From Escherichia coli (lineage in GTDB: Bacteria > Pseudomonadota > Gammaproteobacteria > Enterobacterales > Enterobacteriaceae): a stretch of 64,000 bases of DNA. Both the position numbers and the translations under genes were made by a program. The notes beneath the pieces were generated by a model. The model saw nothing but the letters and a program-made list of their open reading frames with translations, was not told the origin of the DNA and ran no database searches. Of this stretch, positions 27,021 to 35,794 are shown one piece after another (position 1 is the stretch's first letter; each line of letters starts with the position of its first letter). The DNA lies in the NCBI RefSeq assembly GCF_003334405.1, contig NZ_QOWM01000005.1; one strand, written 5' to 3'.

Positions 27021-27296
27021 ATGTTCAGCCGTGTTTTAGCCCTTCTGGCTGTGCTTTTGCTAAGTGCAAATACATGGGCAGCCATTGAAATTAATAACCA
27101 CCAGGCCAGAAATATGGACGATGTGCAAAGCTTAGGCGTGATTTATATCAATCATAATTTCGCCACTGAAAGCGAAGCGCGTCAGGCATTAAATGAAGAG
27201 ACAGATGCGCAGGGCGCAACGTACTACCACGTGATTCTGATGCGGGAACCGGGGAGTAACGGCAATATGCACGCCAGCGCGGATATTTATCGCTAG
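27021..27296 (+). CDS. yjfY: DUF1471 (YdgH/BhsA/McbA-like) small periplasmic protein YjfY
   Basis: 91-aa ORF with signal peptide; GAGGAGG upstream; C-terminal ATYYHVILMRE...ADIYR motif. Confidence 0.88.
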   Translation: MFSRVLALLAVLLLSANTWAAIEINNHQARNMDDVQSLGVIYINHNFATESEARQALNEETDAQGATYYHVILMREPGSNGNMHASADIYR

Positions 27297-27336
27297 CACC
27301 AGGTATAACCAAAGAAACATTGCCATAGTTTGCTTT

Positions 27337-27361
27337 GCCCCCTTCTCAGGGGGCTTTTTTT
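27337..27361 (+). terminator. Intrinsic terminator after yjfY
   Basis: GCCCCC-TTCTCA-GGGGGC followed by TTTTTTT. Confidence 0.8.
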
Positions 27362-27424
27362 GAAAAACGGCTGCGGAATTAGACCAGTTATCTCCCGAGG
27401 AAGGAAATTTCCGCAGCGCGTGTT

Positions 27425-28111
27425 CTACTTCTGCCCGTAATAAGCGTTAGGACCGTGTTTACGCATGAAGTGTTTATTCATCAGGAAGCTGTCGATGTGA
27501 TTGAGTTGTGGATTAATACTGCGCGCAATCCACGCCATTTTCGCCACTTCTTCCATCACTACCGCGTTATGCACCGCGTCGTGGGCATCTTTCCCCCAGG
27601 CGAACGGTCCGTGCTGATACACCACAATTCCCGGCGTATGCAGCGGCTCGGCGTTGCCCAGCGTTTCGATAATCACTTTGCCAGTGTTCAGTTCGTACTC
27701 ACCCTGCACCTCTTCTTCGCTTAATCCGCGCGTGCACGGGATATCACCAAAGAAGTAGTCAGCGTGCGTGGTGCCTAACGCCGGGATCGCCAGCCCCGCC
27801 TGCGCCCATGCGGTGGCATGAGTGGAGTGGGTATGGACAATGCCGCCAAGCGACGGGTAACGACGGTAGAGTTCGAGATGCGTCGCGGTGTCGGAAGATG
27901 GGCGATACTCCCCTTCCACCACCTTGCCGCTCATATCAACCACCACCATATCGGCCGCTTTCATGGTTTCGTAGGCAACGCCGCTGGGCTTGATCACCAC
28001 CAGCCCGCGTTCGCGGTCGATAGCGCTGACGTTGCCCCAGGTAAAGGTCACCAGCCCGTAGCGCGGCAGCTCCATGTTGGCTTCAAATACCTGCTGTTTT
28101 AGCTTTTGCAT
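27425..28111 (-). CDS. ulaF: L-ribulose-5-phosphate 4-epimerase UlaF (SgaE)
   Basis: Track ORF to 28159; ATG (28111-28109) gives [19 protein letters not shown], 228 aa as recalled; start shares a base with the ulaE stop (TAATG). Confidence 0.92.
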
Positions 28112-28965
28112 TATGCCGCCTCCACCATGCCCGCTTTCGCCATGCGCGCTTTCACCCAATCACGCGCTTTCGCCACTTCTGCCGCCGGGTCTTCCGCCGT
28201 TTCGCTCCACATCTCAATCAGGTACGGCCCGCAATAGCCACTCTGTTTGAGCGTTTCGAAACAACGTTCGAAATCCACCACGCCTTCGCCAAACGGCACG
28301 TTTTTGAAGACGCCCGGTTTGGTGTCTTTCACATGTACCGCGACGATATGCCCGATTCCGGCCTGCAACTCCATCTGCACGTCGTTGTCCCACGCCGAGA
28401 GGTTGCCGATATCCGGGTAGAGCTGGAACCACGGGTTGTTGAGATAGTGCGCGTAGCCCAGCGCCTTGCTGATGGAGTTCATCAATGGGTAATCCATGAT
28501 CTCCATCGCCAGCGTCACCTGCGCGCGGCTTGCCATCTCAACGCTCTCTTTCAGGCCGTCACGGAAACGACGACGCGTTTCGTTATTGGCTTCCTGATAG
28601 TAAACGTCATAGCCCGCCAGTTGGATCACGCGAATACCGACATCCTGGGCGAACTGGATAGCTTTACGCATAATCTCCAGCCCCTGCGCCCGCACCGCGT
28701 CATCTTCACTGCCCAGCGGGAAACGACGATGAGCAGAAAGGCACATGGACGGCACGCGCACGCCGGTTTCAACAATCGCGTTCACCAGCGCCAGACGCTG
28801 CTCGCGGCTCCAGTCGAGGCGCGACAGGCGCTCGTCCGTTTCATCTACCGACATCTCGACAAAATCGAAGCCCAACGTTTTTGCCAGTTGCAGGCGTTCC
28901 AGCCAGCACTCCCCGGCGGGGAGCGCTTTTTCATAGATGCCAAGCGGGATTTGTTTGGACAACAT
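28111..28965 (-). CDS. ulaE: L-ribulose-5-phosphate 3-epimerase UlaE (SgaU)
   Basis: 284-aa [28 protein letters not shown]...; xylose-isomerase-like TIM barrel. Confidence 0.93.
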
Positions 28966-28974
28966 ATCCGCTCC

Positions 28975-33250: not shown

Positions 33251-33357
33251 TCTGTCGTTTATACCGGATAGCGTGGAGTAGTTCGCGCTATCCGGCGTAG
33301 TATTTCCTGGCTATTTCAAATATCATCTAAAAAAATCAAATTTTATCGGAATAGCTC

Positions 33358-34113
33358 ATGACTGAAGCACAAAGACATCAAATCCTCCTGGAAATGCTCG
33401 CACAATTGGGCTTTGTGACCGTTGAGAAAGTCGTTGAGCGTCTGGGAATTTCGCCTGCCACTGCGCGACGCGATATCAATAAACTTGACGAAAGCGGCAA
33501 ACTGAAAAAAGTGCGCAATGGCGCAGAAGCTATTACCCAACAGCGCCCGCGCTGGACGCCGATGAATCTGCATCAGGCGCAGAATCACGATGAAAAAGTA
33601 CGTATCGCTAAAGCGGCCTCGCAGCTGGTTAATCCGGGCGAAAGCGTAGTCATCAACTGCGGCTCCACCGCGTTTCTGCTTGGGCGGGAAATGTGTGGCA
33701 AGCCAGTGCAAATCATCACTAATTATCTACCGCTGGCAAATTACCTGATCGATCAAGAACATGACAGCGTGATCATTATGGGCGGACAGTACAACAAAAG
33801 TCAGTCCATCACTTTAAGCCCGCAGGGCAGCGAAAACAGTCTCTATGCCGGGCACTGGATGTTTACCAGCGGCAAAGGACTGACAGCAGAAGGGTTGTAT
33901 AAAACCGATATGCTGACGGCAATGGCAGAGCAGAAGATGCTGAGCGTGGTAGGGAAACTGGTGGTACTGGTTGATAGCAGTAAGATTGGCGAACGCGCGG
34001 GAATGCTTTTTAGCCGTGCCGATCAAATTGATATGCTGATCACCGGCAAAAATGCTAACCCGGAAATCCTGCAACAACTGGAAGCGCAAGGGGTCAGCAT
34101 TCTGCGTGTTTAA
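33358..34113 (+). CDS. ulaR: DeoR-family repressor UlaR
   Basis: 251-aa [46 protein letters not shown]... (N-terminal HTH). Confidence 0.93.
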
Positions 34114-34859
34114 AGATGCTGGCGGAAAAATGTCACTGCAGCATCTAACGCCTCAGGCGTAATGCGGTGACGCACGCCTGGCTGCCATGAACAGGTTAGC
34201 AGTTTATCCCGTCCCGTCTCGCTTAAGGCCTGCTGCAAACGTAGTGATTCATCGGCAGGCACAACGTCATCGTCGAGGCCATGCCACAGCAGTAGAGGTC
34301 TGTCACCAAGTTGTTCCAGGTGGTTTGTCGCTTCCCACTCTGCCAGCGGCGCGACAATGTTATTGAATTCATTCTGTTGTGCTGCCGTTTCAGGTATCAG
34401 CGGTGGAAACAGTGAACGGGCGAGCGATGTAAAATAGCCCGATCCCATCATGCTGGCGGTACATCTCACCGTGGGGTGGCGAGCGGTAATCCCCAGTGCC
34501 GTCATCGCGCCCATCGACGCACCACCGACTGCCAGACGGTCATCAAGCAGCCACTTTTCTTCGGCTATTGCCGCACGTAAAGTAGTGAATTCCTGCATAC
34601 TTTGTAGCAAGATTTGCCAGAATTGATTTAACCGCCGCGCTGCGTCGCCACTAAAACGACTACCGTGATCGGGCGCATCCGGCATGATCACCCGCAAACC
34701 AGCCTGCGCCAGCGCAACGGCAAAATAGCTATACACCAGACTGGACGAAGTAAAGCCGTGATAAAAAATCGCGCACGGTAACGGGGTATCTTTTTGTCCG
34801 ACAGGATAAGCATGAAGAACGGGAATATCTGCCAGCTCGCGTGATTCTATTTCAATCAT
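34110..34859 (-). CDS. yjfP: Alpha/beta-hydrolase esterase YjfP
   Basis: 249-aa ORF with GASMG nucleophile-elbow motif; convergent 4-nt overlap with ulaR. Confidence 0.9.
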
Positions 34860-35040
34860 CTGTCTCTCCTTTTTGTCTGGTATGACATGAAGAAATCCTT
34901 AGCACAAGTTTCTGCTGGCGGTATTAGTTCATAATGTTGAGATGTGGGTTACGCTTTCGTCACGTTTTCATTCGAAAATCGCGTACCAGGTAACAATTCG
35001 GGAACATTCCCCCAAAGTTAAATTAATAAGGCACTACACT

Positions 35041-35370
35041 ATGGTTAGCAGGAAACGTAATAGCGTTATTTACCGGTTTGCCAGTTTATTATTGGTGTTG
35101 ATGTTAAGTGCCTGTAGCGCACTGCAAGGTACGCCACAGCCAGCACCGCCAGTAACGGACCATCCGCAAGAGATTCGCCGCGACCAGACGCAAGGGTTAC
35201 AGCGAATAGGTAGCGTAAGCACGATGGTTCGGGGTTCTCCGGATGACGCATTAGCAGAAATCAAAGCGAAAGCTGTCGCTGCAAAAGCTGATTATTACGT
35301 TGTCGTCATGGTGGACGAAACCATCGTGACAGGACAGTGGTATTCACAAGCCATTTTGTACCGTAAATAA
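35041..35370 (+). CDS. bsmA: Biofilm/stress protein BsmA (YjfO), DUF1471 lipoprotein-like
   Basis: Track ORF from 34942; ATG 35041 gives MVSRKRNSVIYRFASLLLVLMLSACSALQG (lipobox LSAC), 109 aa as recalled. Confidence 0.88.
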   Translation: MVSRKRNSVIYRFASLLLVLMLSACSALQGTPQPAPPVTDHPQEIRRDQTQGLQRIGSVSTMVRGSPDDALAEIKAKAVAAKADYYVVVMVDETIVTGQWYSQAILYRK

Positions 35371-35518
35371 ATCAGACAACTTACATAGTCAGCTTTACAT
35401 TGCTTTGCGTCCCTATGCGTTTACCTGTGCACAATAAATTACCGGCTGGAAGCCTGGGCGTTTATTACCGCGATGGAATGCCCTGCAACATGTGGGGAAA
35501 CGAAAAATGGAGCTGACG

Positions 35519-35794
35519 ATGAAACAATTACTTGCCTCACCCTCGCTGCAATTAGTGACTTATCCTGCGAGCGCCACGGCACAGTCTGCAGAATTCGCCA
35601 GTGCTGACTGCGTGACGGGCCTGAATGAAATAGGTCAGATCTCAGTTAGCAATATTTCAGGGGATCCGCAGGACGTGGAACGTATCGTGGCGTTAAAGGC
35701 CGATGAACAAGGTGCGTCATGGTACCGCATTATTACCATGTACGAAGACCAGCAGCCTGATAACTGGCGCGTACAGGCGATACTGTATGCATGA
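35519..35794 (+). CDS. yjfN: DUF1471 periplasmic protein YjfN
   Basis: ATG 35519 (GGAG 6 nt upstream) gives MKQLLASPSLQLVTYPASATA, 91 aa as recalled; C-terminal motif shared with YjfY and BsmA. Confidence 0.88.
   Translation: MKQLLASPSLQLVTYPASATAQSAEFASADCVTGLNEIGQISVSNISGDPQDVERIVALKADEQGASWYRIITMYEDQQPDNWRVQAILYA

Follow-up and report, generated by a model that had tools for sequence, protein, structure and literature searches.

The stretch of DNA analyzed here (the window) consists of 64,000 nucleotides of one Escherichia coli contig (NZ_QOWM01000005.1, assembly GCF_003334405.1). It carries three genes for small proteins of the DUF1471 family, yjfY, bsmA (= yjfO) and yjfN, placed around the ascorbate (ula) regulon and the esterase gene yjfP. 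All three are intact open reading frames (ORFs) on the plus strand, base-exact with the RefSeq coding sequences (CDSs) of a 100%-identical E. coli genome, where the products are named 'DUF1471 family protein YjfY', 'biofilm peroxide resistance protein BsmA' and 'DUF1471 family protease activator YjfN'. In sequence, the genes of the region are rplI-rpsR-priB-rpsF (minus strand), yjfY (plus), ulaFEDCBA (minus), ulaG and ulaR (plus), yjfP (minus), bsmA and yjfN (plus) and aidB (minus). The coordinates, strand and names that a first-pass annotation had given to the three genes coincide with RefSeq yjfY, bsmA and yjfN, and the RefSeq gene order confirms that they flank the ula regulon and yjfP. The features of the region are listed in Table 1.

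Many E. coli chromosomes match the segment 26700-36000 of the window with 100% identity, and none of the 5426 complete E. coli genomes lacks the locus; yjfY, bsmA and yjfN are core genes of the species. The best explanation of the locus as a whole, to which we assign a probability of about 0.75, is that the three genes are long-diverged DUF1471 relatives in an old cluster, that the ula regulon was inserted into this cluster later, and that the proteins have diverged from one another.

Family membership and fold

All three proteins match PF07338 (YdgH/BhsA/McbA-like, DUF1471) at E ≤ 0.001, the best match being that of YjfY (8.3e-20, model positions 1-55). A hidden Markov model (HMM) built from the ten K-12 paralogues recognized exactly three ORFs in the window, yjfY, bsmA and yjfN, with E-values from 1e-22 to 2e-27. 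The ten K-12 family genes are rclB, yahO, ybiJ, mcbA, bhsA, ydgH and yhcN in addition to these three, in agreement with the count of Eletsky et al. (2014, PLoS One 9:e101787; PMC4092069), whose retrieved passages name YjfY, YjfO/BsmA and YjfN among ten E. coli DUF1471 paralogues. The same passages describe the fold as a small alpha+beta envelope domain with no assigned biochemical function, linked to stress, biofilm and pathogenesis. In an alignment of 12 E. coli domains the C-terminal family signature reads G-A-x-[YW]-Y-x-[IV]... and A-x-[IL]-Y, with two alanines and one tyrosine invariant. The DUF1471 membership proposed in the first-pass annotation is thus upheld by PF07338 and by the paralogue HMM, and the C-terminal pattern that it had seen in all three proteins is the family signature.

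The mutual similarity of the three proteins, claimed in the same annotation, holds for profiles, but pairwise it is weaker than implied. BLASTP aligned BsmA with YjfN (E = 3e-8, 30% identity) and YjfY with BsmA (E = 0.002), and gave no match of YjfY to YjfN. Three-way homology therefore rests on profiles and fold and not on pairwise similarity, and pairwise BLASTP alone was dropped as its proof. With the NCBIfam equivalog model for BsmA (NF011433, cut-off 100 bits) BsmA scored 153.3 bits, and YjfN (51.0) and YjfY (31.9) remained below the cut-off, so that neither of them counts as a BsmA protein. All three were below the cut-off of 125 bits for the YhcN equivalog NF033776 (YjfY 51.1, YjfN 51.8, BsmA 27.5). 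To judge from these scores, the products of yjfY, yjfN and bsmA are relatives of YhcN and not YhcN orthologues.

The best solved relative of YjfY is SrfN (2jna), matched by sequence with E = 1e-6; when the PDB was searched with the BsmA and YjfN sequences, no match was significant. AlphaFold2 models of these two proteins have the strand-helix-strand-strand (E-H-E-E) topology of the solved SrfN, YahO and YdgH domains. The BsmA model has a predicted local distance difference test (pLDDT) score of 87.7, with 96-98 in the domain, and its best PDB folds are YdgH domain I/III and SrfN, at target-normalized template modeling (TM) scores of 0.67-0.79. For the YjfN model (pLDDT 83.1, domain 91-95) they are YdgH domain III/I at 0.82-0.87. 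The top PDB entries returned by Foldseek for the two models were 2m2j, 4evu, 2ma8 and 2jna, and the best of these, 2m2j and 4evu, gave target-normalized TM scores of 0.79-0.87 and root-mean-square deviations of 1.6-2.1 Å. Each of the three genes very probably encodes one alpha+beta domain of about 70 residues, predicted to be exported to the cell envelope.

The family is small, with 509 representative clusters among 1.84 billion proteins. Two exceptions aside, all named homologues are from Enterobacterales (Escherichia, Citrobacter, Salmonella, Enterobacter, Klebsiella, Serratia, Yersinia, Pantoea, Pectobacterium, Rouxiella and similar genera). The exceptions are a locus titled Chryseobacterium sp. 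18061 (L039), which has the full Enterobacteriaceae synteny, and one member of a Serratia cluster that is labelled Pseudomonas lundensis. Both records look mislabelled or contaminated.

Conservation of the cluster and position of the ula block

Related loci were obtained by scanning one genome per species with YjfY, which gave 80 Enterobacteriaceae loci with 10-kb flanks; the genes of the window were mapped onto them by tblastn, and 72 species were scorable. The order yjfY-[ula]-yjfP-bsmA-yjfN is kept in the 72 scorable species. The eight ula genes are present in 57 of them and absent as a clean block in 15. At the ula-minus loci yjfY, yjfP, bsmA and yjfN stand together within about 2 kb; the yjfY stop codon lies 12-174 nucleotides from the yjfP stop codon in 13 of the 15 species, and in the remaining two the gap is occupied by a gene for a transporter of the major facilitator superfamily (MFS) type or by its remnant. 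The synteny comparison with ula-less relatives that the first-pass annotation had suggested accordingly yields a compact cluster of about 2 kb, in these 15 species and in Serratia. In each of the 72 species, as in Serratia and Yersinia, yjfP has yjfY and/or bsmA as its neighbor, and in Pantoea and Pectobacterium it lies near bsmA. With the paralogue HMM, no extra DUF1471 ORFs were found in the gaps of the related loci, which hold the MFS-type transporter gene, a yagU-like gene and other unrelated ORFs.

The junctions of the ula block are sharp. The left edge lies just past the GC-rich, terminator-like hairpin of yjfY, and the right edge is the stop codon of yjfP, which in E. coli overlaps that of ulaR by 4 nucleotides. 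Of six ula-minus loci inspected, five have an equivalent GCCCCC...GGGGGC hairpin with T-run downstream of yjfY, and the sixth, in Kluyvera (L067), has the hairpin without the T-run. The ula-plus partner loci align with the ula-minus loci through this hairpin region.

Outside the Enterobacteriaceae, Serratia has the order yjfY-like, yjfP, bsmA, yjfN, DUF350, aidB, rlmB, rnr. In Yersinia kristensenii, rplI-rpsR-priB-rpsF are followed by a yjfY-like gene, yjfP, bsmA, aidB and rlmB, with no yjfN. Pantoea and Pectobacterium have kept rpsF, yjfP, bsmA and rlmB-rnr, with aidB only in Pantoea, other genes inserted and no yjfN. The positional homologues have their own E. coli counterparts as best BLASTP matches, with identities of 38-42% for YjfY, 43-55% for BsmA and 45-55% for YjfN. 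Since each positional homologue in Serratia and Yersinia matches its own counterpart best, the cluster rpsF-yjfY-yjfP-bsmA-yjfN-aidB appears to be older than the split of Enterobacteriaceae and Yersiniaceae. No ula genes are present between rpsF/yjfY and yjfP in the Serratia, Yersinia, Pantoea and Pectobacterium genomes examined, so that the compact, ula-less layout is the outgroup state.

Most likely, and as the simplest reading of these layouts, the ula regulon was inserted later into a pre-existing yjfY-yjfP-bsmA-yjfN cluster, a direction of change that is reconstructed for the deep branches. The 6.7-kb cassette would have entered at a site flanked by the terminator of yjfY and the stop codon of yjfP, and would then have been lost or replaced in several lineages. 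The first-pass annotation had described the three genes as bracketing the ula locus. As a layout this is correct, but the framing probably reverses the history, since ula looks like a cassette inside an older cluster, and the three genes do not bracket ula in any functional sense.

Some observations speak against a later insertion into an old and complete cluster. In Enterobacter vonholyi, which is ula-minus, about 45 nucleotides of the 3' end of ulaR stand beside the yjfP stop codon (L038:10259-10432, compared with L031); this allele is a secondary deletion, and the remnant is its scar. Some or all of the ula-minus Enterobacteriaceae may likewise be losses. Furthermore, the examined genomes of Yersinia, Pantoea and Pectobacterium have no yjfN at the site, so that the gene must either have been lost there or have arisen later and been transferred. 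In the extreme case ula would be ancestral at the site, every ula-minus genome would be a secondary deletion and the compact state would be derived. The E. vonholyi scar agrees with this, as do the ula-plus majority, always at the same site, and the scattering of ula-minus species within ula-plus genera (Enterobacter, Citrobacter, Kluyvera, Cedecea, Kosakonia). We regard it as unlikely all the same: ula is absent from the site in each of the outgroup genera named above, and most ula-minus junctions have no ula remnant. Even if it were true within the Enterobacteriaceae, the cluster would still be older than the ula insertion.

Replacement of the block was observed in one species. In Pseudocitrobacter faecalis (L046:10283-16900, compared with 27425-33250 of the window) the genes ulaF to ulaG have 90-95% nucleotide identity to E. 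coli, against 79-87% in other genera, and the flanks are typically diverged (65-80%; yjfY 73%, ulaR 80%, yjfP 65%). Between yjfY and ulaF stands a yagU-like gene, the same one as in E. whittamii (L008). Because Escherichia-like ula genes, diverged flanks and a common yagU-like gene are found together, the ula block of P. faecalis looks like a horizontal replacement from an Escherichia lineage.

Origin of the three genes

In a simulation of ten random loci on 4.64 Mb, some three fell within 8.8 kb with P = 0.0012 and within 2.1 kb, the ula-less state, with P = 9e-5. The clustering of the three family genes is not due to chance. The genes bsmA and yjfN are 148 nucleotides apart, both on the plus strand, and they are adjacent in every locus that has both (gap 121-423 nucleotides). 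When ula is absent, yjfY lies within 2 kb of them on the same strand.

For bsmA and yjfN an ancient tandem duplication is the probable origin; it would give an adjacent, co-oriented pair. The best paralogue of BsmA is YjfN (BLASTP 33.5 bits; hhalign 93, compared with 74 for YhcN), and for the BsmA proteins of Pantoea, Pectobacterium, Serratia and contig L088 the second BLASTP match is E. coli YjfN, with E-values down to 6e-16. Trees were calculated by neighbor-joining (NJ) with bootstrap from two taxon samplings (158 and 167 domains, 68 columns), in which the relationships between subfamilies are unresolved. Both NJ point trees place BsmA and YjfN as sister groups. In the retrieved passages of Eletsky et al. 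the adjacency of yjfN and yjfO is likewise taken as a sign of expansion by duplication. A comparison of the three genes at the DNA level gave only chance matches of 7-12 nucleotides (E ≥ 0.45); a recent duplication was rejected, as no DNA similarity remains between the genes. Any duplication would thus predate the split of Enterobacteriaceae and Yersiniaceae.

One discrete character is common to the three proteins. In the 167-domain alignment the hairpin segment, taken from the invariant Ala of G-A-x-x-Y to the invariant Ala of A-x-[IL]-Y, comprises 20 residues in YjfY (18/18), BsmA (25/28) and YjfN (15/16). It comprises 19-21 residues in the YdgH domains and 17 in BhsA, McbA, YbiJ, YahO, RclB and YhcN. 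By this alignment, the hairpin indel divides the DUF1471 family in two.

Several results count against a local duplication, for the pair as well as for all three genes. The alignment and phylogeny called for by the first-pass annotation place BsmA beside YjfN in the NJ trees, but bootstrap values in the 68-column alignment are 22-28% for this pair and 4-17% for the trio. The top paralogue of YjfN is YhcN, narrowly above BsmA (BLASTP 42 versus 29 bits, hhalign 86 versus 82). The top partners of YjfY are YhcN, BhsA and YdgH, and in hhalign YhcN, BhsA, YjfN and YdgH domain I are all equally near to it. The 20-residue hairpin also occurs in YdgH, which is encoded elsewhere in the genome, and it could be ancestral instead of shared derived. 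The local duplication proposed in the first-pass annotation is reasonable for the adjacent pair bsmA/yjfN; YjfY is as near to YhcN as to its neighbors. That yjfY stems from the same local expansion is plausible, with less confidence than for the pair, but the sequences can no longer show it.

A stricter version of this history has one ancestral DUF1471 gene at the site and two local duplications, so that the trio would form a clade excluding the other seven paralogues. Three co-oriented members within 2 kb in the absence of ula, at the chance probability given above, would follow naturally from it, as would the common 20-residue hairpin and a cluster already complete in Serratia, and the trio does appear in the small share of bootstrap replicates already mentioned. 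It is nevertheless somewhat doubtful. YjfY is no nearer to BsmA and YjfN than to YhcN, BhsA and YdgH, with the failed BLASTP match to YjfN as a further point; the long hairpin of the YdgH domains means that this character is not unique to the trio; and the trio is absent from both NJ point trees.

At the other extreme there would have been no duplication at all, the family members having been brought beside yjfP by rearrangement or transfer and kept there as an envelope-stress module or by shared regulation. The divergent arrangement of yjfP and bsmA recurs in Yersinia, Serratia and every member of the Enterobacteriaceae examined, the yjfY junctions are an insertion hot spot (MFS transporter, yagU-like gene, methyl-accepting chemotaxis protein, rtcB), and horizontal replacement is documented at the locus, all of which would suit such an assembly. 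Its regulatory part agrees poorly with the literature, where the signals differ: bsmA is tied to sigma-S, yjfN falls in the Cpx iModulon, and yjfY has no known signal. The bsmA promoter formed open complexes only with the sigma-S holoenzyme and is also a site in sigma-S chromatin immunoprecipitation sequencing. A scan for consensus sigma-70 promoters upstream of yjfY, bsmA and yjfN found none, a result that is uninformative because the published bsmA promoter is of the sigma-S type; a terminator scan around the three genes found none beyond that of yjfY. No shared operon is evident, given the bsmA-yjfN gap, the separate terminator of yjfY and the lack of promoters and further terminators in these consensus scans. 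Moreover, the nearest paralogue of BsmA is its neighbor, as duplication predicts, and published double mutants of ydgH with bsmA, yjfN and yhcN have no compound fitness defects. Assembly without duplication is therefore judged improbable.

The family offers precedents for local expansion in ybiJ/mcbA, in the triplication within YdgH and in a Salmonella gene pair. In K-12, ybiJ and mcbA are, like yjfY and bsmA, two co-oriented DUF1471 genes at a distance of 4 kb, separated by unrelated genes (ybiI, ybiX, fiu). Their products differ from the yjf trio in being clearly close relatives (53-70 bits, together with BhsA, as against 0-33 bits in the trio) and in having the short hairpin of 17 residues. 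YdgH (SssB) resembles the trio in its local duplication, an internal triplication with three DUF1471 domains, and in its long hairpin of 19-21 residues; in structure, the BsmA and YjfN models match its domains I and III best. In YdgH, however, the duplicates are fused in one polypeptide at another locus, and the three domains group at 67-86% bootstrap, far above the values of the yjf trio. For Salmonella, the retrieved passages of Eletsky et al. report that yhcN adjoins a ycfR-like gene.

Properties of the gene products

After the duplications the products would have diverged into a tethered lipoprotein (BsmA), a soluble DegP activator (YjfN) and a protein with a plain signal peptide (YjfY). 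The first-pass annotation had called all three secreted. Putative export signals are present on all three, with a clear pattern in YjfY and BsmA and a weak one in E. coli YjfN, but BsmA carries a lipobox and is not plainly secreted. Its remark that the individual roles are poorly defined applies to YjfY, the only one still uncharacterized, but not to BsmA and YjfN, for which experimental literature exists.

BsmA begins with a long basic N-region, followed by the lipobox L22-S-A-C25, a Pro-rich linker at about residues 26-42 (TPQPAPPV) and the DUF1471 domain at about residues 43-109. The hydrophobic core of the leader has a Kyte-Doolittle value of 2.9. A lipobox of the relaxed pattern [LVIMFAT][ASTVIGLCN][GAS]C is present in 73 of 73 BsmA orthologues; the strict pattern [LVI][ASTVI][GAS]C was found in none of 81 YjfY and none of 74 YjfN proteins. 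The +2 residue decides the Lol sorting of lipoproteins, and in the 73 BsmA orthologues it is Ser (66), Thr (6) or Gln (1), never Asp. From the lipobox and the non-Asp +2 residue, BsmA is predicted to be an outer-membrane lipoprotein. RcsF, an annotated outer-membrane lipoprotein, ranks next behind the DUF1471 structures when the models of BsmA and YjfN are compared by Foldseek (E about 7e-3 to 1e-2), and like BsmA it has a flexible Pro-rich tether ahead of a small alpha/beta domain. It differs in being an outer-membrane stress sensor with no detectable sequence homology to BsmA, which has no known signalling role. The retrieved passages of Eletsky et al. note the resemblance of the DUF1471 fold to RcsF and the redox-active disulfides of RcsF, which DUF1471 proteins do not have. 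BsmA has been linked to biofilm and peroxide stress; the passages present it as influencing biofilm formation, and lipidation is not raised in them. In the type strain of Escherichia albertii, NBRC 107761 (L011:8002-8331), bsmA has two in-frame stops, Q44* and W101* relative to E. coli, and is apparently a pseudogene.

In YjfN the conserved Tyr (Phe in one protein) is followed directly by Ala (65) or Val (5) at the C-terminus in 70 of 70 orthologues; in Serratia the residue is Leu. The other nine K-12 paralogues end in Y-K or Y-R, and YjfN is without the terminal Lys/Arg. The hydrophobic C-terminus of YjfN fits the published DegP-activator role; left free, it would likely dock in a PDZ domain of DegP and activate the protease allosterically, with YjfN being consumed. 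CpxP is a similar case: this small periplasmic, Cpx-linked adaptor promotes proteolysis by DegP and is itself consumed by the protease. In fold and family it has no relation to YjfN. In a published assay with CsgA, DegP degraded CsgA with YjfN but not with CpxP. Kim et al. (2018) is cited for YjfN as a suicide activator of DegP, which it is reported to stimulate while itself being degraded. The literature groups yjfN in the CpxR (Cpx envelope-stress) iModulon. In the retrieved passages of Eletsky et al. YjfN was still uncharacterized in 2014.

The leader of E. coli YjfN (residues 1-22, MKQLLASPSLQLVTYPASATAQ) does not fit export as well as those of its relatives. Its hydrophobicity is low and it includes two Pro; the highest Kyte-Doolittle mean over 9 residues is 1.19, compared with a YjfN median of 2.13 outside Escherichia and with 2.0-3.4 in the leaders of other family members. 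The efficiency of export in E. coli may be low or unusual, a point against the predicted envelope localization of this protein.

Residues 1-20 of YjfY are predicted to be a Sec signal peptide for signal peptidase I (MFSRVLALLAVLLLSANTWA|A) with an A-x-A-like cleavage site, a hydrophobic core of Kyte-Doolittle value 3.44 and no lipobox. A stretch of 18 residues, A29-RNMDDVQSLGVIYINH-N46 (ARNMDDVQSLGVIYINHN), is identical in 69 species/loci, and outside it YjfY drifts to 64% identity. Synonymous variation is found at nearly every codon of residues 29-46, with a mean nucleotide identity of 85%. A nucleotide-level element was rejected, as the synonymous sites vary freely. Invariant residues with variable synonymous sites indicate a strong constraint at the protein level and point to an interaction surface; the stretch A29-N46 probably marks a conserved interaction or binding surface.

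A bolder account of these properties makes yjfN a neofunctionalized tandem copy of bsmA which, without the lipobox, the Pro-rich tether and the terminal Arg-Lys, would have become a soluble trigger of DegP. On this account the cluster would form one coherent module for envelope stress, made up of a tethered, RcsF-like BsmA, the protease activator YjfN, and YjfY with a partner-binding surface of 18 residues. Taken together, these two proposals are speculative and rather unlikely.

Other features of the region

An Rfam scan of positions 26000-36500 detected the RpsF leader only; the arrangement of the genes is thus not explained by an RNA element. In most loci rpsF and yjfY are 0.3-0.5 kb apart; in Citrobacter, with an extra gene between them, the distance is 1.2-2.6 kb. 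Species of this genus have a gene for a membrane protein of 261 residues between rpsF and yjfY (L018:8939-9724), and C. sedlakii has an ORF of 707 residues there (L057:7730-9853). A 68-residue ORF with a signal-peptide-like N-terminus is found in Pantoea at the position of yjfY, between rpsF and yjfP (L092:4853-5059). It has no Pfam match and no BLASTP match to any E. coli DUF1471 paralogue.

In Klebsiella, Kosakonia, Phytobacter and C. werkmanii, the space between yjfY and ulaF or yjfP is occupied by a gene for a membrane protein of about 373-402 residues that, judged by eye, resembles MFS-type transporters (L084:10394-11587, L064:10367-11575, L020:10448-11641, L076:10444-11565); in C. amalonaticus this gene is frameshifted and broken (L013:10445-11703). 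In Klebsiella pneumoniae ATCC 13883 (L069:14367-14766) ulaA, ulaG, ulaR, yjfP, bsmA and the 5' end of yjfN are missing, and ulaB abuts the truncated yjfN. This gap is either a strain deletion or a scaffold artefact.

Directly after the yjfN stop codon, at 35810-35850 of the window, lies a GC-rich imperfect palindrome (gccggatgcggcgcgagcgccttgtccggcctac) resembling repetitive extragenic palindromic (REP) elements, where the terminator scan made no call. At about 23700-25150 of the window (L001:1-1443), genes for a tripartite ATP-independent periplasmic (TRAP) transporter permease and substrate-binding protein adjoin rplI in this strain; the K-12 neighborhood is presumably different, and the segment may be strain-variable.

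Table 1. Positions in the window of the three DUF1471 genes, their coding segments and the neighboring features.
Feature	Position	Strand	Evidence and remarks
rpsF with RpsF leader (leader 26691-26775)	26298-26775	-	RefSeq; Rfam RF02893, 110 bits; fixed left neighbor, divergent from yjfY
yjfY CDS, 91 residues, DUF1471	27021-27296	+	ORF, RefSeq, PF07338
yjfY signal peptide, residues 1-20	27021-27080	+	Predicted
yjfY invariant stretch, residues 29-46	27105-27158	+	Comparison of 69 species/loci
yjfY strand-hairpin-strand segment	27156-27287	+	Family alignment
Intrinsic-terminator-like hairpin and T-run after yjfY	27337-27361	+	Terminator scan; GCCCCCTTCTCAGGGGGC followed by TTTTTTT
ula regulon block	27425-34113	mixed	RefSeq; variable cassette separating yjfY from the rest of the cluster
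ulaF	27425-28111	-	RefSeq
ulaE	28111-28965	-	RefSeq
ulaD	28975-29625	-	RefSeq
ulaC	29639-30103	-	RefSeq
ulaB	30113-30418	-	RefSeq
ulaA	30434-31831	-	RefSeq
ulaG	32186-33250	+	RefSeq
ulaR	33358-34113	+	RefSeq
yjfP esterase gene	34110-34859	-	RefSeq; divergent from bsmA; constant member of the cluster backbone
bsmA (yjfO) CDS, 109 residues	35041-35370	+	RefSeq; lipobox, Pro-rich linker, DUF1471 domain
bsmA lipobox	35104-35115	+	Lipobox pattern
bsmA strand-hairpin-strand segment	35284-35358	+	Family alignment
yjfN CDS, 91 residues, DUF1471	35519-35794	+	RefSeq, PF07338; C-terminal Tyr-Ala codons 35786-35791
yjfN leader, residues 1-22	35519-35584	+	Kyte-Doolittle profile
yjfN strand-hairpin-strand segment	35711-35785	+	Family alignment

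Significance

The names of the genes, the family, the count of ten paralogues and the adjacency of yjfN and yjfO as a sign of duplication are already known from RefSeq and from the retrieved passages of Eletsky et al. Those passages do not present yjfY as a member of the cluster or ula as a variable insert. The additions made here are minor: yjfY belongs to the same ancient cluster, and ula is a variable cassette inside it; hairpin length serves as a character within the family; and the BsmA lipobox and the C-terminal residue of YjfN are subfamily-wide. They carry little weight as a discovery, and their value as evolutionary bookkeeping is modest. YjfY emerges as the least understood and the most strongly constrained member. 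For the neighboring paralogues, two simple features, a lipobox in BsmA and a terminal basic residue lost from YjfN, would account for their different jobs, and both offer inexpensive, testable ways into a family with a largely obscure biochemical mechanism.

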